Positions 5,184-57,470 are shown, counted from the first letter of the stretch. The stretch is 64,000 bases of DNA from Escherichia coli (GCF_022846255.1 NZ_AP025682.1); one strand, 5' to 3'. The notes: generated by a model from the sequence alone, not told the origin. A program made the numbers and translations.

Positions 5184-6635
5184 TCATTCACGCCAGAAAG
5201 TCGGGGTAAAGAGCACCAGCAATGTAAAGACCTCGAGACGACCAAACAGCATGTTGGCAATCAGGATCCATTTAGCCACCGGGTTCATACTGGTAAAGTT
5301 ATCAGCAACCACGCCAAGCCCTGGCCCCAGGTTATTCAATGTCGCAACAACCGAGGCAAAAGCAGAAAAGTCATCCACGCCCGTGGCGATAATCGCCAGC
5401 ATACTGACAATAAACACCAATGCATAGGCGGAGAAAAATCCCCAAACGGCTTCGAGGATACGTTCCGGCAGTGCGCGATTCCCCAGCTTAATGCTATAGA
5501 CGGCGTTCGGATGCACCAGTCGTTTCAGCTCACGGTTCCCCTGCTTAAACAGCAGCAGGATGCGGATCACTTTCAGGCCACCGCCCGTTGACCCGGCACA
5601 ACCGCCGATAAAAGCTGAACATAAAAGCAGTACCGGCAAAAAGAGCGGCCAGCGGGCAATGCTGTCAGTCGTAAACCCGGCGGTTGTCGCCATCGACACC
5701 ACCTGGAAAAACGCCTGGTTAATTGTCATCAGCGCCGAACTGTAGACATTATGAAACCACAGTACGAGGGTACAAATAACCACCAGCGTAAACTGTACGC
5801 CGATAAACATGCGAAATTCCGGATCGCGCCAATAAACCTTCAGACTACGCCCACTTAACAGCGAAAAGTGCAGACCGTAGTTACAGCCGGAGATCAGCAG
5901 GAAGATAGCAATGATAGTGTTAATAGTCGGGCTATCGAAATAACCGATACTGGCATCATGTGTCGAGAAGCCGCCAATAGCGATAGTCGCAAAGCTATGG
6001 CCGATGGCATCAAAGGCATCCATTCCGGCAAACCACAACGCCAGCGCACAGGCGACGGTCAGCAAGACATAAATCAACCACAGGGTTTTCGCCGTTTCCG
6101 CAATTCGCGGGCGCATTTTGTTATCTTTCAGTGGGCCGGGCATTTCTGCGCGATAGAGCTGCATCCCACCCACGCCGAGGATAGGCAGTATCGCAACCGC
6201 CAACACGATGATCCCCATCCCGCCAAACCATTGCAGCATCTGGCGATAAAAGAGGATGGCGTGAGGGAGCGAATCCAGTCCCACCAGCGTAGTGGCCCCC
6301 GTGGTAGTCAGACCGGAGAAAGATTCAAAAAACGCATCGGTAATCGTGAGGTTTGGGCTTTCCGAAAAGATAAAAGGGAGCGCACCGACGCTACCCAACA
6401 CGGTCCAGAACAGCACCACTATCAGAAACCCTTCACGGGATTTCAGTTCGCCCTTTTCTTTACGGTTCGGCCACCACAGCATAGAACCAATGGCAAGAGC
6501 GACAAAAAAGGTCTGGGTAAAGGCGCGGCCCGCACCATCCCGGTAGATGAGTGCTACCAGTCCAGGGATAATCATGGTCCCTGAAAATAAGATGACCAGT
6601 AGTCCAACGATTCGGGTAATGGCGCGAAAATGCAT
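5184..6635 (-). CDS. trkH: Trk system potassium uptake protein TrkH
   Basis: 483-aa polytopic membrane ORF; 12-nt gap to hemG (operon). Confidence 0.93.
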   Translation of the reverse strand: MHFRAITRIVGLLVILFSGTMIIPGLVALIYRDGAGRAFTQTFFVALAIGSMLWWPNRKEKGELKSREGFLIVVLFWTVLGSVGALPFIFSESPNLTITDAFFESFSGLTTTGATTLVGLDSLPHAILFYRQMLQWFGGMGIIVLAVAILPILGVGGMQLYRAEMPGPLKDNKMRPRIAETAKTLWLIYVLLTVACALALWFAGMDAFDAIGHSFATIAIGGFSTHDASIGYFDSPTINTIIAIFLLISGCNYGLHFSLLSGRSLKVYWRDPEFRMFIGVQFTLVVICTLVLWFHNVYSSALMTINQAFFQVVSMATTAGFTTDSIARWPLFLPVLLLCSAFIGGCAGSTGGGLKVIRILLLFKQGNRELKRLVHPNAVYSIKLGNRALPERILEAVWGFFSAYALVFIVSMLAIIATGVDDFSAFASVVATLNNLGPGLGVVADNFTSMNPVAKWILIANMLFGRLEVFTLLVLFTPTFWRE

Positions 6636-6673
6636 CTCTGCCGCTTCCTTAGTTCTGCAAAACGAAGTGGGGA

Positions 6674-7291
6674 TTATTCTTCAATCGCTAACAATTGCAA
6701 TGAACCACGGCTAAAATCCGCCAGCTTTGCGGAAAATTCAGCCACTTTCGCCGCCGGAAGCGCCACCCGCAGCAGAACGAATGCCTGATAATCACTGTTG
6801 ATAATTTTGCCGTCACACTGCCCCAGCAACGCTTCAATGCCGGTTAACTGACTATATTCACATTGCAAAGTATATTCGGTTAATGGTGTCTTGCGTTGGG
6901 TCGTTAGCTGGCGCAGCGCCTGATTCACGCCGCCGCCATACGCTTTCACTAACCCACCGGTGCCCAGCAATATGCCGCCGTAGTAGCGCACCACCACAGC
7001 GGTAATTTCCCCGACGCCGCTGCCCATTAGCTGGGCGAGCATCGGTTTACCTGCCGTTCCCGCCGGCTCCCCGTCGTCAGAGAAACCCAGCTGTTGAGAA
7101 TCATCCGGCGCACCCGCCACCCACGCCACGCAATGGTGGCGGGCATCGGGGTGCTCTGCCCGCACCGATTCAACAAACGCTTTTGCCGCCTCAACGCCAT
7201 CGGTATGCGCCAACAGCGTAATGAAGCGGCTCTTTTTGATCTCTTCAACGACCGTGACCGGTGCCGCAGGAATTAACCAGCTTTCCATCAC
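6674..7291 (-). CDS. yigZ: IMPACT-family protein YigZ
   Basis: 205-aa ORF; 4-nt overlap with the pepQ stop (7288-7291). Confidence 0.9.
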
Positions 7292-8619
7292 GCCAGTTTC
7301 AGATCCCGGGTCATGTTTTCCACGTTGTTTTCGTGAATCACCACGTTGTCTTCGATACGAATGCCGCCGAACGGTTTCAGTGCTTCAATTTTCTGCCAGT
7401 TGAAGTGTTTGCTGAACTGCCCTTCACGCCACGGTGCCAGAAGCGATTCGATGAAGTAGATACCCGGTTCGATGGTTAACACCATGCCCGGCTGGAGAAT
7501 ACGGGTGCAGCGCAGGTACGGATATTTTGCCGGTGCCGCGAGGTGCGTACCGCTATCATCCTGCATAAAACCGGCTACGTCATGCACCTGCAGGCCCAGC
7601 GGATGGCCGATACCGTGCGGCATAAACGGTCCGGTGAGATCGTTTTCGACCATCGCTTCTTCACTCATATCGGTGATGATTTGATGTTTACGCAGCAGTT
7701 TGGCGATGCGCTGATGGAACTGGATGTGGTAATCCACATAGCTGACGCCTGCTTTCATGGTGGCGATCAGCGCAAGTTGCTCATCATTTACGTCTTTCAC
7801 CAGCTGTGCGTAGTCGTTGTCGCTTTTTGCCGACCAGGTACGGGTTAGATCAGCCGCATAGCCGTTATATTCGGCCCCGGCATCCAGCAGGAAGCTGCGC
7901 ATCTCTTCCGGTGCCTGGTGGTCCAGTTTGGTGTAATGCAACACCGCAGCGTGTTCGTTAAGCGCCACAATGTTGCTATAAGGTACGTCGGTATCACGAT
8001 GACCGGTCGCGGTCAGATAGGCAATGTTGATATCGAACTCGCTCATGCCAGAACGGAACGCTTCTTCTGCCGCACGATGACCGTTGACCGCCATTTTCTG
8101 CGCTTCACGCATACAGGCCAGTTCGTACTCGGTTTTGAAGGAGCGATAGTAATGCAGGTAGTCGATCACCCCTTTCGGGTTGATATTGCTGGCCTCAATA
8201 CCCAGTTGCAGCGCACGTTCTGGCACCGGACCGATATAACCGATATTGCCGCGCGCAGCAGGCAACAGACTACCAATGCCATCGGCTTTCGGCAGCGCGA
8301 TCACTTCTACATCTTCAGTCCAGAAGGAGTTCGGCAGCGGTTCGACGTTGTGCCAGTAATCAACCGGCAGATAGAACCACAGTTTCGGCTTATTCACGCC
8401 ATCCACCAGCAGCCAGCAGTTTGGCACCTGAGTTACTGGCACCCACGCTTTGAATTGCGGGTTCACTTTAAACGGATAGGGATGATCGTCGAGAAAAACG
8501 TTGAACAGTTCGCCGGAGTGAATAAGTAACGCATCCAGCCTGAAGCGCGCCAGCGCATCGCGAGTCCGTTCCTGTAAGGTAGCTATATGATTTTTATAGA
8601 GCGAGGCCAGTGATTCCAT
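7288..8619 (-). CDS. pepQ: Xaa-Pro dipeptidase (prolidase)
   Basis: 443-aa ORF with the M24 metallopeptidase HxxE...E pattern; divergent from fadB. Confidence 0.93.
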
Positions 8620-8766
8620 TTTTTACCCTTCTGTTTTTTTGACCTTAAGTCTCCGCATATTAGCACATCGTTCATCCAGAGCGTGATTTCTGCCGAGCGT
8701 GATCAGATCGGCATTTCCTTAATATTTTATTTGCATATTTTTAACACAAAATACACACTTCGATGC

Positions 8767-10998: not shown

Positions 10999-12171
<1,173 letters not shown>

Positions 12172-12300
12172 CCACTTGCCGGATGCGGCGTGAACGCCTT
12201 ATCCGGCCTACCGATCCTGCACCCATGTGGGTCTGATAAGAAGCGCCAGCGTCGCATCAGGCATCGTGCATCGATTGCCGGATGCGACATAGATCTAAAT
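12172..12300. repeat. cluster of REP (repetitive extragenic palindromic) elements
   Basis: GCCGGATGCGGCGTGAACGCCTTATCCGGCCTAC and a second inverted copy ...CATCAGGCATCG...GCCGGATGCGAC; classic REP consensus. Confidence 0.8.
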
Positions 12301-12330
12301 GCCACTGTATAAAGTTTTAGTTGCCGTTCT

Positions 12331-12358
12331 TCCCGCCTGTCAGGGGCGGGTTTTTTAT
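12331..12358 (+). terminator. rho-independent terminator downstream of fadBA
   Basis: Stem CCCGCC...GGCGGG followed by TTTTTT (12351-12356). Confidence 0.7.
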
Positions 12359-12361
12359 ATC

Positions 12362-13063
12362 TCAGATAAATGCAAACGCATCGCCAAACAGGCGATCTTC
12401 CCGCGCATTACGCTCGCTGCAAAACAGGTCACGGGCAATTTTCGCCATCTCAAAACGTCCGGCAATATAGATATCATGCTCTGCCAGCGTACCATGATCC
12501 TGCAATACCGCCGTTAACACGGTGCCAGTACGCCCACGCCAGCCCGCTTCCGGTTGTTCAACCACCGGCACCACTTGTAGACCAGGATGCTTCAACGAAA
12601 GCGCCTCAAGCTCGCAGAGATCATACAGATGCTGCTCTTCACGCCCGCCCCAGTAAATGGTGATATCACGGTTTGGGTTACGCGCCAACGCTGTCAGCAA
12701 AATCGAGCGGGCATAAGAGAACCCGGTGCCGCCCGCAATCAAAATCATCGGACGCTCTTCATCATCGCGCAGCCACGCTTCTCCGTGGGGAATATCGACC
12801 ACGATTTGATGATCTTTGAGGATGCGGTCCATGACTGCTTTCGCGTAAAGGTTGATTTCAGAAGCGCCAATATGCAGCTCGATAAACCCTTTTTCATCTG
12901 GCGTCGAAGCCATTGAGAACGGACGTTTGTCGCGCTCATCCATCACTACCATCAAATACTGACCAGCACGAAAAGAAAAGGCCGCGTCTGGCACGATGCG
13001 GACACGATATACGGTATCCGTGATAGCTTCTACCGAGGTCACTTTACAGCTTAAGGTTGTCAT
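12362..13063 (-). CDS. fre: NAD(P)H-flavin reductase
   Basis: ORF track starts 11 codons upstream; the 233-aa product [21 protein letters not shown]... is Fre. Confidence 0.92.
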
Positions 13064-51772: not shown

Positions 51773-52159
51773 ATGTTTAAATCATCTATTAGAAATATAT
51801 TATACCCATCCAGGCTTAAGCATTTATCACGTTTGCAGTTTATAATCTACACATTAACATCATGGACAATATTAATAACTTTGAATGATATCAACCTGGC
51901 TTTGAGTTTCATTCTGGTCATCACTAATACGTATGTGAATATCAATATCGGAGCTAAAAGAATAAGAGATACTGGATGTAAGGCAATCTATTTTGTATTG
52001 ATTTCATTGGGTTTGACACTTTTTTCTATTATCTCGGCAGTAATTGAAGGGGTGAGATGTGATTCATTAAGCGTCCAACTCAACGTAGCATGGATATTAT
52101 TCACAACAATTATGTTATCTGCGATTCCCTCGGCTAAAATGTCGCTGTCAGCACACTAA
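51773..52159 (+). CDS. small inner membrane protein, YigF-like by position
   Basis: 128-aa ORF with two or three hydrophobic segments, convergent with corA as yigF is in K-12; sequence identity not verified. Confidence 0.55.
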   Translation: MFKSSIRNILYPSRLKHLSRLQFIIYTLTSWTILITLNDINLALSFILVITNTYVNINIGAKRIRDTGCKAIYFVLISLGLTLFSIISAVIEGVRCDSLSVQLNVAWILFTTIMLSAIPSAKMSLSAH

Positions 52160-52183: not shown

Positions 52184-53134
52184 TTACAACCAGTTCTTCC
52201 GCTTAAAGTAGAGATACGGTGCCAGGCCCGCGAGGATCATAAAGATAATCGCGCCTGGGTAGCCGAAGCTCCACTTCAGTTCTGGCATAAACTCAAAGTT
52301 CATCCCGTAGCTGGAAGCAACCAGCGTCGGCGGCAGGAACACGACGGATACCACCGAGAAGATTTTGATGATGCGGTTCTGCTCGATATTGATAAAGCCC
52401 ATCGCCGCCTGCATCAGGAAGTTCACCTTCTGGAACAGGGATTCGTTATGCGGCAGCAGGGATTCGATATCTCGCAGGATTTCACGCGCCTGCTCCAGTT
52501 GCCCACCCGGTAAACGCGCCTTGCGTACCAGGAAGTTGAGCGCACGCTGGGTATCCATCAGACACAGGCGAACTTTCCAGCCGATATCTTCCAGTTCCGC
52601 CAGCGTAGAGAGCGCTTCGTCATACTCATCGCCCTGATGCCCTTCCATAATCACCCGGCTCAACTGCTCCAGGTCGCTATAGATATTTTCAATTTCATCT
52701 GCCAGCTGTTCGATTTTGGTTTCGAACAGATCCAACAGCAGCTCGTAGGCGTTACCGTCTACCATCGACTGGCTACGGGCACGCATACGATACAGACGAA
52801 AAGCGGGCAGTTCACGCTCACGCAAAGTAAACAGACGACCATCACGGATGGTAAATGCCACAGTGGAGTTACCGGCGTGATCTTCCGCATCTTCAAAGAA
52901 GAAGAAGGAGTGAATATGCAGGCCGTCATCGTCTTCAAAGAAACGTGCCGATGCTTCGATGTCTTCCAGTTCCGGGCGGGTTGCCAGGCTCTGGCCAAGT
53001 TCAGATTGTACGCGCAGTCGCTCGTCGTCGTCCGGTTCGACAAGATCAATCCATACTGCATTTACAAGGGGTTGTGACTCTTCGACTTCCAGCCGGGTCA
53101 GTCGGTTATTTTCCAGTTGAAATGCGCTCAGCAT
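52184..53134 (-). CDS. corA: magnesium/cobalt transport protein CorA
   Basis: 316-aa product from [16 protein letters not shown]; C-terminal YGMNF motif present. Confidence 0.95.
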
Positions 53135-53503
53135 GACCGGGACTCCCAATGCTTAAAATATCGGACAGTTCGGTGGGCACACAGAAACAAATTGGGTTTC
53201 AGACCATTAAACAGCCTGACTCAGCGCGACGGGAAAAATTGAGGTCGCTGACAACCGCTAAGGCTATCAGCAAAAAGGGATAGCCTTAGGAGTTGATCCT
53301 GGATGACAGGATAGTGAGCCAGTATCTACTGGGTGTGTCCAAGGCGAATGTCCTCTTAGAGTGATCGTGCGCGCATGTTACGCCAGCAAAATTTTGCCGT
53401 CAACACGCAACAGAACACCACAGAACAATAGTTGAACTTCGCGCTTTTTGGTACTCGTCAAGGTCGCTAACAGGATAAAAAAATCCCACATCCAGGACCT
53501 ATA

Positions 53504-54268
53504 ATGGCGCATCGGCTACTCATTGGTAAAGGAATGATCACCTTGAATCTCAAACGGATTTTTCTCGCCCTCACCTTACTTCCCTTGTTTGCTGTTGCCG
53601 CTGATGATTGCGCACTCTCAGATCCGACGCTGACCGTACAGGCGTATACCGTTAATACTCAAACAGAGCGGGTGAAAATGTACTGGCAAAAAGCCAATGG
53701 CGAAGCGTGGGGAACGTTACATGCGCTGCTGGCGGATATGAATAGTCAGGGTCAGGTGCAGATGGCGATGAACGGCGGCATCTATGATGAAAGCTATGCG
53801 CCGCTCGGTTTGTACATCGAAAACGGTCAGCAGAAGGTGGCGTTAAATCTCGCTTCAGGTGAAGGGAATTTCTTTATTCGTCCTGGCGGCGTGTTTTATG
53901 TCGCGGGAGATAAAGTCGGCATCGTTCGTCTGGATGCCTTTAAAACCAGTAAAGAGATTCAGTTTGCGGTGCAGTCAGGGCCATTGTTGATGGAAAACGG
54001 TGTAATTAATCCGCGTATTCATCCCAACGTCGCCTCACGTAAAATTCGTAACGGTGTTGGGATTAATAAACATGGGAACGCCGTGTTTTTGTTGAGCCAG
54101 CAGGCGACAAATTTTTATGATTTTGCCTGTTATGCCAAAGCAAAACTGAACGTTGAGCAGCTGCTTTATCTTGATGGCACAATTTCACATATGTATATGA
54201 AAGGCGAGGCAATCCCGTGGCAACGCTATCCTTTTGTCACCATGATTTCCGTCGAGCAGAAAGGTTAA
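53504..54268 (+). CDS. yigE: DUF2233-domain periplasmic protein YigE
   Basis: 254-aa ORF with signal peptide. Confidence 0.85.
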   Translation: MAHRLLIGKGMITLNLKRIFLALTLLPLFAVAADDCALSDPTLTVQAYTVNTQTERVKMYWQKANGEAWGTLHALLADMNSQGQVQMAMNGGIYDESYAPLGLYIENGQQKVALNLASGEGNFFIRPGGVFYVAGDKVGIVRLDAFKTSKEIQFAVQSGPLLMENGVINPRIHPNVASRKIRNGVGINKHGNAVFLLSQQATNFYDFACYAKAKLNVEQLLYLDGTISHMYMKGEAIPWQRYPFVTMISVEQKG

Positions 54269-54350
54269 ACATTGTACACTCGAGGAGGCCAGACAAACTG
54301 GGGCTGGCTACACAGCTGGAAAATCATCAGATAAATGAAGGGAAACAAAA

Positions 54351-55253
54351 ATGAAAAAAACGCTCGCAACATTATTTTTATTAACCTGTCTGGGGTCATC
54401 ATCCGCTTATGCGGATAACGCTTTGATTTTACAAACGGATTTTAGCCTGAAAGATGGTGCCGTCTCGGCGATGAAAGGGGTCGCTTTCGGCGTTGACCAT
54501 AATCTTAAAATATTTGATTTAACACACGAAATTCCACCGTATAACATCTGGGAAGGCGCTTACCGCCTGTATCAGACTGCCAATTACTGGCCGCAAGGTT
54601 CGGTGTTTGTTAGCGTGGTCGATCCTGGTGTTGGTACAGAGCGTAAATCGGTAGTGCTGAAAACCAAAAATGGTCAGTACTTCGTTTCACCAGATAACGG
54701 TACGCTCACGTTGGTGGCGGAATCGCTGGGTATTGAGAGCGTCCGGCAAATCGATGAAAAAACCAACCGTCTGAAAGGTTCCGAAAAGTCATATACCTTC
54801 CACGGTCGTGACGTGTATGCCTACACCGGTGCACGTCTGGCTTCCGGGGCGATCACGTTCGAGCAGGTGGGGCCAGAGCTTCCTGCAAAAGTTGTCGAAC
54901 TTTCTTATCAGAAAGCCAAAGCAACAAAAGGTGAAGTGAAGGGCAATATCCCGATTCTCGATATTCAGTACGGCAACGTCTGGAGCAATATCAGCGACGA
55001 GTTGCTGAATCAGGCAGGAATCAAACTCAACGACACGTTGTGTGTGACCATTTCCGAAGGTTCCCAGCAAAAATACGCAGGGAAAATGCCGTATGTCGCA
55101 AGCTTCGGCGATGTGCCGGAAGGCCAGCCGATGGTGTATCTGAACAGCTTATTGAATGTTTCCGTGGCGCTGAATATGGATAATTTCGCGCAGAAACATC
55201 AGGTTGCGTCTGGTGCTGACTGGAATATTGATGTGAAGAAGTGCGCTAAGTAA
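54351..55253 (+). CDS. DUF62-family SAM hydroxide adenosyltransferase-like protein with N-terminal signal peptide
   Basis: 300 aa; motifs TDFS, VVDPGVGTER, SPDNG, TFHGRDVY, QYGNV parallel the archaeal/bacterial SAM hydrolase (fluorinase/chlorinase) fold; N-terminus MKKTLATLFLLTCLGSSSAYA is a Sec signal peptide. Confidence 0.8.
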   Translation: MKKTLATLFLLTCLGSSSAYADNALILQTDFSLKDGAVSAMKGVAFGVDHNLKIFDLTHEIPPYNIWEGAYRLYQTANYWPQGSVFVSVVDPGVGTERKSVVLKTKNGQYFVSPDNGTLTLVAESLGIESVRQIDEKTNRLKGSEKSYTFHGRDVYAYTGARLASGAITFEQVGPELPAKVVELSYQKAKATKGEVKGNIPILDIQYGNVWSNISDELLNQAGIKLNDTLCVTISEGSQQKYAGKMPYVASFGDVPEGQPMVYLNSLLNVSVALNMDNFAQKHQVASGADWNIDVKKCAK

Positions 55254-55260
55254 GTTACTG

Positions 55261-55300
55261 ATGCCGGATGCGGTGTGGCGCACCGCATCCGGCAACGGAA
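55261..55300. repeat. REP-type palindrome
   Basis: GCCGGATGCGGTG-TGGCG-CACCGCATCCGGC, a perfect 13-bp inverted repeat with REP consensus. Confidence 0.75.
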
Positions 55301-55307
55301 TCGTAAA

Positions 55308-57470
55308 TTATACCGTCTCCAGTCGGGCGTAAGCCGCCACCAGCCATTTAATACCCTGGCCCTGGAACGCCACCTGCAAACGGCTATGCTCACCGCTGCC
55401 TTCCATATTGACGATGGTGCCTTCACCAAACTTAGCGTGGCGTACGCGCTGGCCGAGCTTGTAGCCGCTGTCGTTCTCGACCATCGGCGTACCCATCCGT
55501 TGATGGCTGACCGGGCGGCTTACCGTGGCGCGCAGGCGCACCTCTTCCACACACTCTTCCGGCAACTCACCGATAAAGCGCGACGGGCGATGGTAAACCT
55601 CTTTGCCATATAGACGGCGGGTTTCCGCGTAGGTCAGCGTCAGTTTCTGCATCGCGCGGGTTACGCCAACGTAGGCCAGACGGCGTTCTTCTTCCAGACG
55701 CCCGCCTTCATCCAGCGACATCTGGCTTGGGAACATGCCCTCTTCCATACCAACGATAAACACCTGCGGGAATTCCAGACCTTTCGCCGAGTGTAGCGTC
55801 ATCAACTGCACAGCATCCTGCCAGGTATCCGCCTGCCCCTCGCCCGCTTCCAGCGCCGCATGGGAGAGGAATGCCTGCAGCGGCATTAAATCTTCGTCTT
55901 CTTCGTTGTAGCTGAACTGGCGCGTTGCCGTCACCAGTTCCTCTAAGTTTTCGATACGCGTCTGACCTTTTTCGCCCTTCTCCTGCTCGTACATGGTGCG
56001 CAGGCCGGAGTCTTTAATTACCCGGTCAGTCTGTACATGCAGCGGCATATCGGCAGTTTCCTGCGCTAAGGCGTCGATTAATTCCATAAATCGCTGTAAG
56101 GCGCTGGCAGCACGTCCGGCGAGGGCTTTTTCCTGCAACAGTTCACGGCACGCTTGCCACAGCGTTAACTGTCGATCGCGCGATGCCTGACGTACCACGT
56201 CCAGCGTCCGGTCACCAATACCCCGCGTTGGCGTATTCACCACACGCTCAAAGGCCGCGTCGTCGTTACGGTTGGCAATCAGGCGTAAATACGAGAGCGC
56301 ATCTTTGATTTCCTGGCGTTCGAAGAAGCGCATCCCGCCGTAAATACGGTACGGCATACTCGCCTGCAACAGTGCTTCTTCCAGCACGCGCGACTGGGCG
56401 TTGCTGCGGTAGAGAATGGCGCACTCGGCAAGCGCCCCACCATTGTCCTGCCAGGTTTTGATGCGGTTAACGACAAAACGCGCTTCGTCGAGTTCGTTAA
56501 AAGCGCAATAGAGGGAAATCGGCTCACCGTCCGCGCCATCGGTCCACAACTTTTTACCCAAACGCCCGTTGTTGTTTTCAATCAGGGCGTTAGCGGCGCT
56601 CAGAATGTTGCTAGTGGAGCGGTAGTTTTGCTCCAGACGAATGGTTTCGGCACCGGGGAAATCATTGAGGAAACGCTGAATATTCTCTACCTGCGCCCCA
56701 CGCCAGCCGTAGATTGACTGGTCGTCATCGCCAACGATCATCACTTTGCCAGTATCGCCCGCCAGCAGGCGGATCCACGCGTACTGAATGTTGTTGGTAT
56801 CCTGGAATTCGTCCACCAGGATGTTAGTAAAACGTTCGCGGTAGTGTTGCAGGATATGCGGCTTGTTAAGCCACAGTTCGTGGGCGCGTAGCAGTAGTTC
56901 AGCGAAGTCTACCAGGCCCGCGCGGTCGCACGCTTCCTGATACGCCTGGTACACCTTCTGCCAGGTCTGCTCCACCGGATTACCGTAGCTTTGAATATGA
57001 TGCGGACGCAGCCCTTCATCTTTCTGGCTGTTGATGTACCACATTGCCTGGCGCGGCGGCCACTGCTTCTCGTCGAGGTTCATGGCTTTGATCAGACGCT
57101 TAAGCAGGCGCAACTGGTCTTCGCTGTCGAGGATCTGGAAATCCTGCGGCAGGTTGGCGTCCATATGGTGCGCACGCAGCAGACGGTGTGCCAGCCCGTG
57201 GAAAGTGCCGACCCACATACCGCCCTGGCTGGTACCCATCAGTTGCCCGATACGATGGCGCATTTCCGCCGCCGCTTTGTTGGTAAATGTCACCGCCATA
57301 ATCGAGTACGGCGAGCAGTTTTCCACGCTCATCAGCCAGGCGATACGATGCACCAGTACGCGCGTCTTACCACTGCCCGCGCCCGCCAGCACCAAAAGGT
57401 TGCTGCGTGGCGCGGCCACCGCTTCGCGCTGTTTGTCATTAAGGCTGTCGAGCAGGTAAGAAACGTCCAT
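55308..57470 (-). CDS. uvrD: DNA helicase II
   Basis: 720-aa product from MDVSYLLDSLNDKQREAVAAPRSNLLVLAGAGSGKTRVL; the ORF track extends 62 codons upstream over the LexA box. Confidence 0.95.
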   Translation of the reverse strand: MDVSYLLDSLNDKQREAVAAPRSNLLVLAGAGSGKTRVLVHRIAWLMSVENCSPYSIMAVTFTNKAAAEMRHRIGQLMGTSQGGMWVGTFHGLAHRLLRAHHMDANLPQDFQILDSEDQLRLLKRLIKAMNLDEKQWPPRQAMWYINSQKDEGLRPHHIQSYGNPVEQTWQKVYQAYQEACDRAGLVDFAELLLRAHELWLNKPHILQHYRERFTNILVDEFQDTNNIQYAWIRLLAGDTGKVMIVGDDDQSIYGWRGAQVENIQRFLNDFPGAETIRLEQNYRSTSNILSAANALIENNNGRLGKKLWTDGADGEPISLYCAFNELDEARFVVNRIKTWQDNGGALAECAILYRSNAQSRVLEEALLQASMPYRIYGGMRFFERQEIKDALSYLRLIANRNDDAAFERVVNTPTRGIGDRTLDVVRQASRDRQLTLWQACRELLQEKALAGRAASALQRFMELIDALAQETADMPLHVQTDRVIKDSGLRTMYEQEKGEKGQTRIENLEELVTATRQFSYNEEDEDLMPLQAFLSHAALEAGEGQADTWQDAVQLMTLHSAKGLEFPQVFIVGMEEGMFPSQMSLDEGGRLEEERRLAYVGVTRAMQKLTLTYAETRRLYGKEVYHRPSRFIGELPEECVEEVRLRATVSRPVSHQRMGTPMVENDSGYKLGQRVRHAKFGEGTIVNMEGSGEHSRLQVAFQGQGIKWLVAAYARLETV

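Follow-up and report, generated by a model that had tools for sequence, protein, structure and literature searches.

An exported DUF62 protein encoded between yigE and uvrD in Escherichia coli, with a near-identical orthologue in Helicobacter pylori

The window analysed here is a stretch of 64,000 nucleotides of Escherichia coli chromosome, in which the genes run in the order corA-yigE-DUF62-uvrD-yigB-xerC. The DUF62 gene occupies positions 54351..55253 on the plus strand. It begins with ATG, encodes 300 amino acids followed by a stop codon, and is preceded, 7 nt 5' of the ATG, by a Shine-Dalgarno-like GAAGGGA (54337..54343, plus strand). Its product is identical to RefSeq WP_000751610.1, named there "SAM hydrolase/SAM-dependent halogenase family protein." The gene is real and intact and, since a family-level name already exists in RefSeq, it does not represent a new family. 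The gene is 100% identical to its copy in EPEC E2348/69, and positions 53400-55700 are 100% identical to strain FEX669.

Upstream, on the same strand and across an 82-nt gap, lies yigE (53504..54268), whose product belongs to an exported phosphodiester glycosidase family and is mentioned for context only. Downstream, on the minus strand and convergent, is uvrD (55308-57470). The spacer between yigE and the DUF62 gene holds no clear promoter, so that co-transcription of the two is possible; a promoter and terminator scan gave nothing beyond shuffle expectation. Rfam, run over 53000-56000, found no RNA element. Between the DUF62 gene and uvrD stands a REP-type hairpin (55263..55293) with a perfect 13-bp stem (GCCGGATGCGGTG/CACCGCATCCGGC) and a 5-nt loop, which may serve as a bidirectional transcript-end or stabiliser element; its right arm also occurs in the K-12 spacer. 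The first-pass annotation had placed the gene between yigE and uvrD, next to a REP element, and had put the K-12 gap at only about 0.1 kb. All of this holds; K-12-like genomes have a REP-containing yigE-uvrD spacer of 146 bp, against 1039 bp here.

Assignment to the DUF62, or SAM hydrolase-halogenase, fold is secure. Pfam SAM_HAT_N (PF01887) matches residues 26-174 over model positions 2-145 of 145 (E=3.8e-53), and SAM_HAT_C (PF20257), the C-terminal beta domain, matches residues 198-291 (E=3.9e-18). Every PDB entry found by sequence search is a DUF62 hydrolase, a SalL-type chlorinase or a fluorinase (E=1e-43 to 1e-20), with 2zbu the best match (E=1e-43) and the DUF62 hydrolases and SalL falling within 1e-43 to 1e-34. 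For the mature part, AlphaFold gave a monomer model from an 82-sequence alignment, with pLDDT 95.9 and pTM 0.90. Solved structures matched by this model in Foldseek include 2zbu, 6ryz and 2wr8 at TM 0.86-0.92, with E=1e-32 and TM 0.86/0.91 for 2zbu (DUF62 of T. maritima), TM 0.87/0.91 for SalL, and TM 0.81/0.88 for PH0463. Thus, Pfam model, PDB matches and modelled fold agree on the family that had been read from the motifs. The homotrimer that is usual for DUF62 proteins, which places its active sites at the subunit interfaces, is probably formed here too.

Membership in a family is not, of course, the same as sharing a substrate. The NCBIfam equivalog models for (R)-SAM hydrolases are missed (NF058624, 132.2 against 350 bits; NF053629, 115.8 against 470 bits), and because these scores lie so far under the cut-offs, substrate identity is not automatically transferable from those enzymes.

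What sets the protein apart is its N-terminus. Codons 1-21 (MKKTLATLFLLTCLGSSSAYA; 54351..54413, plus strand) are predicted to encode a Sec signal peptide, followed directly by DNALILQTDF. The n-region carries K2 and K3, the h-region has a 12-residue hydrophobic core (residues 4-15; maximum 9-residue Kyte-Doolittle mean 2.3), and the segment A19-Y20-A21/D22 offers a site for signal peptidase I. The leader lies wholly N-terminal to the Pfam domain, which begins at residue 26. We infer that signal peptidase I cuts after A21, giving a mature enzyme of residues 22-300 (54414..55250, plus strand) with D22 at its N-terminus. A lipoprotein reading, prompted by the lipobox-like L-L-T-C13, was rejected. 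Thr is an unusual residue for position -1, C13 is missing from H. pylori SA213A and from most Aeromonas, and conservation extends to the A-x-A site, so that cleavage by signal peptidase I is preferred.

A leader of this kind could be an artefact of start-codon choice, and the first-pass annotation, which had called a Sec-type signal peptide, had named such an artefact as the way in which its call might fail. It does not fail in this way. The next in-frame ATG is M41, which lies past D30 of the TDF motif (54438..54440, plus strand), the family-invariant ribose-binding Asp that corresponds to D16 of FDAS (PMC4859513); a start at M41 would therefore give no complete enzyme. TTG at codon 25 is not preceded by a Shine-Dalgarno sequence. 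The decisive evidence, however, is comparative. A homologue scan using one genome per species (GTDB r220) gave 80 loci whose proteins are 55-96% identical, from more than 10 phyla (Proteobacteria, Bacteroidota, Verrucomicrobiota, Synergistota, Fusobacteriota, Thermotogota, Planctomycetota, Bacillota and others). A Sec or lipoprotein leader stands directly ahead of the domain in all 84 loci (of 85) that have a readable N-terminus. The sequences of these leaders diverge while their architecture is preserved ahead of the domain start, ..ALVxQTDFG; in the roughly 80 closest homologues the equivalent form is A/V-x-A immediately ahead of [DN][NE]ALxxQTDF, with lipoboxes replacing A-x-A in several. 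Conservation of the leader across these relatives argues that the tripartite signal peptide is genuine, and the enzyme should therefore act outside of the cytoplasm, in a place that does not normally contain SAM as a metabolite.

The branch to which the protein belongs is a very large one, and not a peculiarity of the yigE-uvrD locus. Among the best 150 representatives of clusters formed at 50% identity, 72 have a hydrophobic leader, 49 have none, 7 have a non-hydrophobic extension, and 22 are truncated, which amounts to hydrophobic leaders in 72 of the 128 that could be scored. The leaderless relatives (Listeria- and Enterococcus-type proteins of 280-285 amino acids) form a separate group and are at most 52% identical. 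Members of the exported subfamily come mostly from free-living bacteria of soil and water (Chitinophaga, Verrucomicrobia, Aeromonas). A literature search on an exported DUF62 subfamily found no description of one, although absence there is, of course, not proof of novelty.

Cysteines point to the same compartment. The mature proteins of the exported clade average 0.9 Cys each, against 3.3 in leaderless relatives. Further, C231 (55041..55043, plus strand) and C298 (55242..55244, plus strand) occur in one identical set of 35 sequences, all of the proteobacterial ones, and neither is ever found without the other. As such perfect co-occurrence is the pattern expected of a structural disulfide, it suggests a periplasmic C231-C298 disulfide. 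Cysteine depletion and the co-varying pair are two independent signatures of an oxidising compartment.

These observations bear on the view that the protein is simply a cytoplasmic repair hydrolase for (R)-SAM, with a leader that is uncleaved or non-functional or with a downstream start. All characterised DUF62 hydrolases are indeed cytoplasmic (bioRxiv 10.1101/2025.08.29.672840), and the codon-25 TTG could in principle yield a leaderless product. But that codon has no ribosome-binding sequence before it, the leaderless relatives group apart, and n/h/c leaders of divergent sequence, some with lipoboxes, are present in all of the roughly 80 closest homologues. The clade-wide leaders and the cysteine pattern led us to reject this view, which we regard as very improbable.

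The catalytic residues speak to the chemistry. In SAM hydroxide adenosyltransferases, an Asp-Arg-His set (D68, R75 and H127 of PH0463) is the signature of water activation, and its counterparts in halogenases are T80/S158 of FDAS and Y70/G131 of SalL (PMC4859513). The E. coli protein has the hydrolytic set. D91 and R98 lie in VVDPGVGTER (D91-PGVGTE-R98, 54621..54644, plus strand), aligned with D68 and R75 of PH0463 and with the same D-to-R spacing of 7, and H151, the counterpart of H127, lies in FHGRD (54801..54803, plus strand). When 80 exported members are aligned with 22 that are leaderless or solved, D91 and R98 are each conserved in 100% of the exported clade, and H151 in 94%. Conservation is 94-100% across the 80 exported homologues for the set D30, D91, R98, H151, N116 (PDNG), N209 (YGN) and N275, and 95-100% for D30 and the segments P114-D-N-G-T and L203-D-I-Q-Y-G-N209. 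The literature gives the family motifs as PxNG(L/T), (I/L)DxxFGN and the ribose-binding Asp (equivalents of FDAS D16/N215) (PMC4859513). Alignment to the characterised enzymes, which had been proposed as a check on whether SAM-binding residues survive, thus finds the triad and the ribose- and adenine-binding motifs kept. No active-site residue hints at another chemistry, and the different adenosyl substrate that had been suggested, while possible, is not indicated.

Since the triad is present and the halide residues of the halogenases are replaced, the protein is of hydrolase type and not of halogenase type. An extracellular SAM-dependent chlorinase or fluorinase might be imagined from the fold shared with SalL (about 30% identity), from the mention of halogenase in the RefSeq name, and from the label "adenosyl-chloride synthase," derived from UniProt, that one study gives to HP0709, the H. 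pylori orthologue discussed below (PMC6090961). However, D91 stands opposite SalL Y70, and F150 and H151 stand opposite SalL W129 and Y130; pairwise alignment puts Y, T and Y of SalL at D91, R98 and H151 of the E. coli protein. In addition, the fluorinase model TIGR04507 scores 84.7 bits against a cut-off of 400. The triad and this score led to rejection of the halogenase interpretation, the least probable of all that were considered.

Within E. coli the gene is accessory. It is found in 2413 of 5426 complete genomes (about 44%), one copy in each, at 95-100% nucleotide identity. Carriers include E2348/69, ST131, 83972, APEC O2:K1, O157/O145 and BL21, and the gene is present in Shigella as well. 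K-12-like genomes keep no remnant of it, and a plasmid collection yielded no copy of the E. coli-type gene on a mobile element, its matches at 75% identity or more being 4.9-Mb, chromosome-sized records. Two other species-level representatives of Escherichia have the collinear order corA-yigE-DUF62-uvrD-yigB, at 93-94% nucleotide identity. The copy of Edwardsiella piscicida, 72% identical, adjoins recQ about 5 kb from corA, which is the same chromosomal neighbourhood. The gene had been described as inserted between yigE and uvrD; this is probably the wrong polarity. Because the gene occupies the same site in other Escherichia lineages and in 44% of E. coli, parsimony makes it more likely that it is old in this region of the Enterobacterales chromosome and that the lineage to which K-12 belongs has lost it.

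The nearest relative outside Escherichia and Shigella is HP0709 of H. pylori (UniProt O25413; jhp0648). It is 88.7% identical to the E. coli gene in amino acids and 83% in nucleotides (64% at third codon positions), has the same length, and shows no indels. After Escherichia and Shigella, the next-best matches number in the thousands and come from H. pylori and H. acinonychis; these proteins have 300 amino acids and are 88-89% identical. The gene appears widespread in both species, judging from 90% clusters with thousands of members and from whole-chromosome contigs. Homology in DNA covers the gene and about 26 nt upstream only (window 54325-55254, plus strand; positions 5981-6904 of the H. 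pylori locus L003). The flanks are unrelated, HP0709 lying in the context uvrA-hopE-rsmH-HP0708-[HP0709]-homA/B. The first-pass annotation had missed this near-identical orthologue, which is the most unusual fact of the case. HP0709 is elsewhere mis-annotated as an acetolactate synthase.

In a neighbour-joining tree the Escherichia and H. pylori proteins group in 100 of 100 bootstraps, and the pair is nested among Edwardsiella, Pasteurellaceae and Aeromonas. GC content is 47.8% for the E. coli gene (window 51.9%) and 42.9% for the H. pylori gene (locus 38%). The tree, the GC content and the gene-only homology, together with synteny in Escherichia, point to transfer of a single gene from an Escherichia-related enterobacterium to an ancestor that H. 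pylori shares with H. acinonychis. In the E. coli-H. pylori comparison dS is about 1.0, and dN/dS is 0.05-0.06 both there and within Escherichia; the gene is under strong purifying selection. Literature searched on HP0709, jhp0648 and O25413, and on DUF62 in Helicobacter, does not describe the relationship with E. coli.

Neighbouring genes give no clue to function. When ORFs of at least 100 amino acids within 5 kb on each side of about 80 exported-DUF62 loci were clustered all against all, no conserved informative neighbour emerged. What recurs are generic LysR regulators, MacB-type ABC transporters, RecQ and GGDEF proteins, or lineage-specific synteny. In none of the lineages was a transporter or salvage gene a conserved neighbour, and the linkage of yigE to DUF62 was not found outside Escherichia. 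Some exported DUF62 proteins have a Y_phosphatase3 domain, an alpha/beta hydrolase or a VanX-type dipeptidase as fusion partner; these fusions fit an extracytoplasmic hydrolase role and indicate no single pathway.

The interpretation that we favour, with belief and doubt about evenly matched, is that of a periplasmic hydrolase that cleaves extracellular adenosyl sulfonium compounds of the SAM type to adenosine and methionine, for salvage. The Sec signal peptide would direct the protein out of the cytoplasm and be removed by signal peptidase I, after which the enzyme would fold as a soluble periplasmic protein, probably a trimer and probably stabilised by the C231-C298 disulfide. Water activated by the Asp91-Arg98-His151 triad would displace the leaving group at C5' of the adenosyl sulfonium in an SN2 reaction. 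The most likely substrate would be S-adenosylmethionine of external origin that has reached the periplasm, its (R)-sulfonium epimer, which accumulates in extracellular SAM, included. SAM is preferred because it is the only known substrate class of the family and because the chemistry requires a good leaving group. The (R)-epimer should be enriched in SAM outside of cells, and it is the form that characterised DUF62 enzymes prefer (bioRxiv 10.1101/2025.08.29.672840).

Such an enzyme would be a nutrient-salvage ectoenzyme, following the same logic as UshA and CpdB or the exported MTA nucleosidases of Borrelia. E. coli is not known to import SAM, whereas adenosine and methionine, the proposed products, are imported. 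H. pylori usually requires methionine. It also lacks de novo purine synthesis (PMC8502122, PMC6136348), and exported enzymes that salvage SAM metabolites have a precedent in Bgp and MtnN of Borrelia (PMC7557402). Gene context, of course, lends no support to a salvage role, as no salvage or transporter gene is a conserved neighbour. Further, known DUF62 hydrolases are very slow, which would be odd in a scavenger.

It may instead be that the enzyme is exported and performs the same SN2 chemistry on a natural substrate other than SAM, serving detoxification or processing rather than nutrition. Candidates in the envelope or the environment would be decarboxylated SAM, 5'-halo-5'-deoxyadenosines, natural products derived from SAM, or some toxic analogue. 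The periplasm is not known to contain SAM as a metabolite, the NCBIfam scores lie under the equivalog cut-offs, and the fusion partners are heterogeneous. Eight residues, W67, Y71, R72, Q75, Y186, N265, L267 and W291, are conserved only in the exported clade and could tune substrate choice or reflect an altered pocket; some of them lie near the segment of the C-terminal domain that contacts methionine in SalL (YLNSRGR vs YLNSLLN). On the other hand, all residues with known roles in adenosine binding and water activation are kept, the alternatives are limited by the need for a good leaving group, of which a sulfonium is an example, and none of about 80 loci places the gene within a biosynthetic or resistance cluster. 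We consider a substrate other than SAM rather unlikely, though the strongest of the competitors to salvage of SAM.

A role directed at the host is less probable again. Here, the enzyme would make extracellular adenosine, which is immunosuppressive, or would deplete mucosal SAM, and so assist colonisation or virulence by H. pylori and pathogenic E. coli, with an outcome analogous to that of AdsA of Staphylococcus aureus. Both H. pylori and H. acinonychis seem to carry the gene widely, and it is present in B2 and E-type pathogens (E2348/69, ST131, 83972, O157). HP0709 is listed in proteomes of H. pylori outer membrane vesicles, although ribosomal proteins are listed there as well, making this weak evidence for localisation (PMC8756444). 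A GWAS links the HP0709 SNP D49N to gastric cancer (PMC6090961), but D49 is not a conserved residue. BL21 is not a pathogen and has the gene, and in a subfamily found mostly in free-living bacteria a host-specific role cannot be ancestral.

A large exported branch would have implications beyond this locus. DUF62 proteins have so far been understood only as cytoplasmic hydrolases that repair epimerised SAM, or as rare halogenases. An exported branch, present in pathogenic E. coli and BL21 and apparently widespread in H. pylori, would imply a pool of substrate outside of the cytoplasm, either extracellular SAM or something related to it, to which microbiology has given no thought. A tentative proposal, to which we give less credence than to the salvage role itself, is that exported DUF62 proteins are widespread and unrecognised ectoenzymes that harvest extracellular SAM, especially its dead (R)-epimer, and that one of their genes passed from the Escherichia lineage to the forebear of both H. 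pylori and H. acinonychis. If true, H. pylori would have kept the gene because it lacks purine synthesis and usually needs methionine, and HP0709 would be a nutritional, and possibly host-modulating, factor of enterobacterial origin. The exported branch gives HP0709, a poorly annotated gene from a gastric-cancer GWAS, a testable function, and the E. coli-H. pylori pair offers a clean case of single-gene transfer between phyla among bacteria of gut and stomach. What marks the protein out within a known family are the exported branch, its likely periplasmic disulfide, its occurrence in BL21 and in pathogens, and an H. pylori orthologue that seems to be of enterobacterial origin.

Comparison with known systems places the protein most clearly. 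With PH0463, MJ1651, 2zbu, StDUF62 (Salinispora) and SaciSAMH it shares a two-domain fold (TM 0.81-0.92) and both Pfam domains, and with the SAM hydroxide adenosyltransferases it shares the D-R-H triad, PxNG, FGN/YGN and the invariant ribose-binding Asp. Unlike the (R)-SAM hydrolases, it has a predicted cleavable Sec leader, sits in a distinct exported clade at most 52% identical to leaderless members, falls under the NCBIfam equivalog cut-offs, and is cysteine-poor with a co-varying Cys pair; their cytoplasmic repair role cannot apply to a protein of the periplasm. With SalL (chlorinase) and FlA/FDAS (fluorinase) it has in common the fold, the adenosine-binding motifs and, probably, a trimer-type architecture. 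These halogenases, however, have halide-binding residues of their own where this protein has the hydrolase triad, and they are cytoplasmic and encoded in biosynthetic clusters, whereas the DUF62 gene of the window is solitary.

Bgp and MtnN of Borrelia burgdorferi are signal-peptide versions of a SAM-metabolite enzyme that is normally cytoplasmic, and they serve purine and methionine salvage outside of the cell (PMC7557402). They are functional analogues only, of unrelated fold, and cleave the N-glycosidic bond of MTA and SAH rather than displacing at C5'. The closest comparison is with HP0709, the sister of the E. coli protein in every bootstrap replicate, with the same leader architecture and the same Cys pair. 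It differs in its unrelated genomic context, in its lower GC, and in that it appears widespread in its species, while the E. coli gene is accessory.

The exported DUF62 protein of the window has an orthologue in Helicobacter pylori, HP0709, that matches it with 88.7% amino acid identity and 83% nucleotide identity, with no indels. Here, DNA homology runs from 54325 to 55254 of the window and from 5981 to 6904 of the H. pylori locus L003 (CP079344.1), and the likeness ends at the borders of the DUF62 gene. Because the homology is confined in this way, it indicates that a single gene would have been transferred between phyla. As to its direction, both tree and synteny speak for a move from Enterobacterales to Helicobacter. 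The copy in Edwardsiella piscicida (locus L066, 5947-6846; 72% amino acid identity) lies in the corA-recQ neighbourhood, where recQ occupies 6853-8682 and corA about 11895-12839, a hint that the gene may have resided for a long time in that chromosomal region of the Enterobacterales.

HP0709 carries a SNP, D49N, from a gastric-cancer GWAS (PMC6090961). Residue 49, whose codon is equivalent to window 54495-54497, is not conserved across the exported clade (the roughly 80 closest homologues with Sec or lipobox leaders), and the site lies outside every catalytic motif.

The two cysteines of the mature protein, C231 (55041-55043) and C298 (55242-55244), are found together in 35 of the 80 exported homologues, and neither occurs alone in any. 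This perfect co-occurrence suggests a putative periplasmic disulfide, one that would anchor the C-terminal tail on the beta domain. Exported DUF62 proteins are also found fused to other domains, in a Fervidobacterium MAG (locus L067, 5971-7887) and in the proteins P0159 and P0205. One fusion adds a second SAM_HAT_C and a Y_phosphatase3 domain, another an alpha/beta hydrolase (S33/esterase) domain, and the third a VanX-type D-Ala-D-Ala dipeptidase domain.

The surrounding DNA varies among strains. Upstream of corA, the window has a 128-aa ORF (51773-52159, + strand), where the strain FEX669 has annotated YPO3983-family and DUF943 genes; this makes the region beyond corA a further variable spot among otherwise near-identical strains. 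In one strain (H5, NZ_AP045169.1), an IS4 element lies within yigE, directly upstream of the DUF62 gene.

The K-12-type counterpart of window 54269-55307 is a 146-bp spacer (locus L001, 2370-2515), in which no remnant of the DUF62 gene survives. Its REP/BIME arrangement differs from that of the window, and the two have in common only the right arm of a hairpin (55281-55293). The gene is present in E2348/69 (H36) and is intact in BL21 (H64, NZ_CP053601.1; 95% nucleotide identity), and K-12 lacks it. Thus, standard expression hosts differ in whether they have this periplasmic DUF62 protein.
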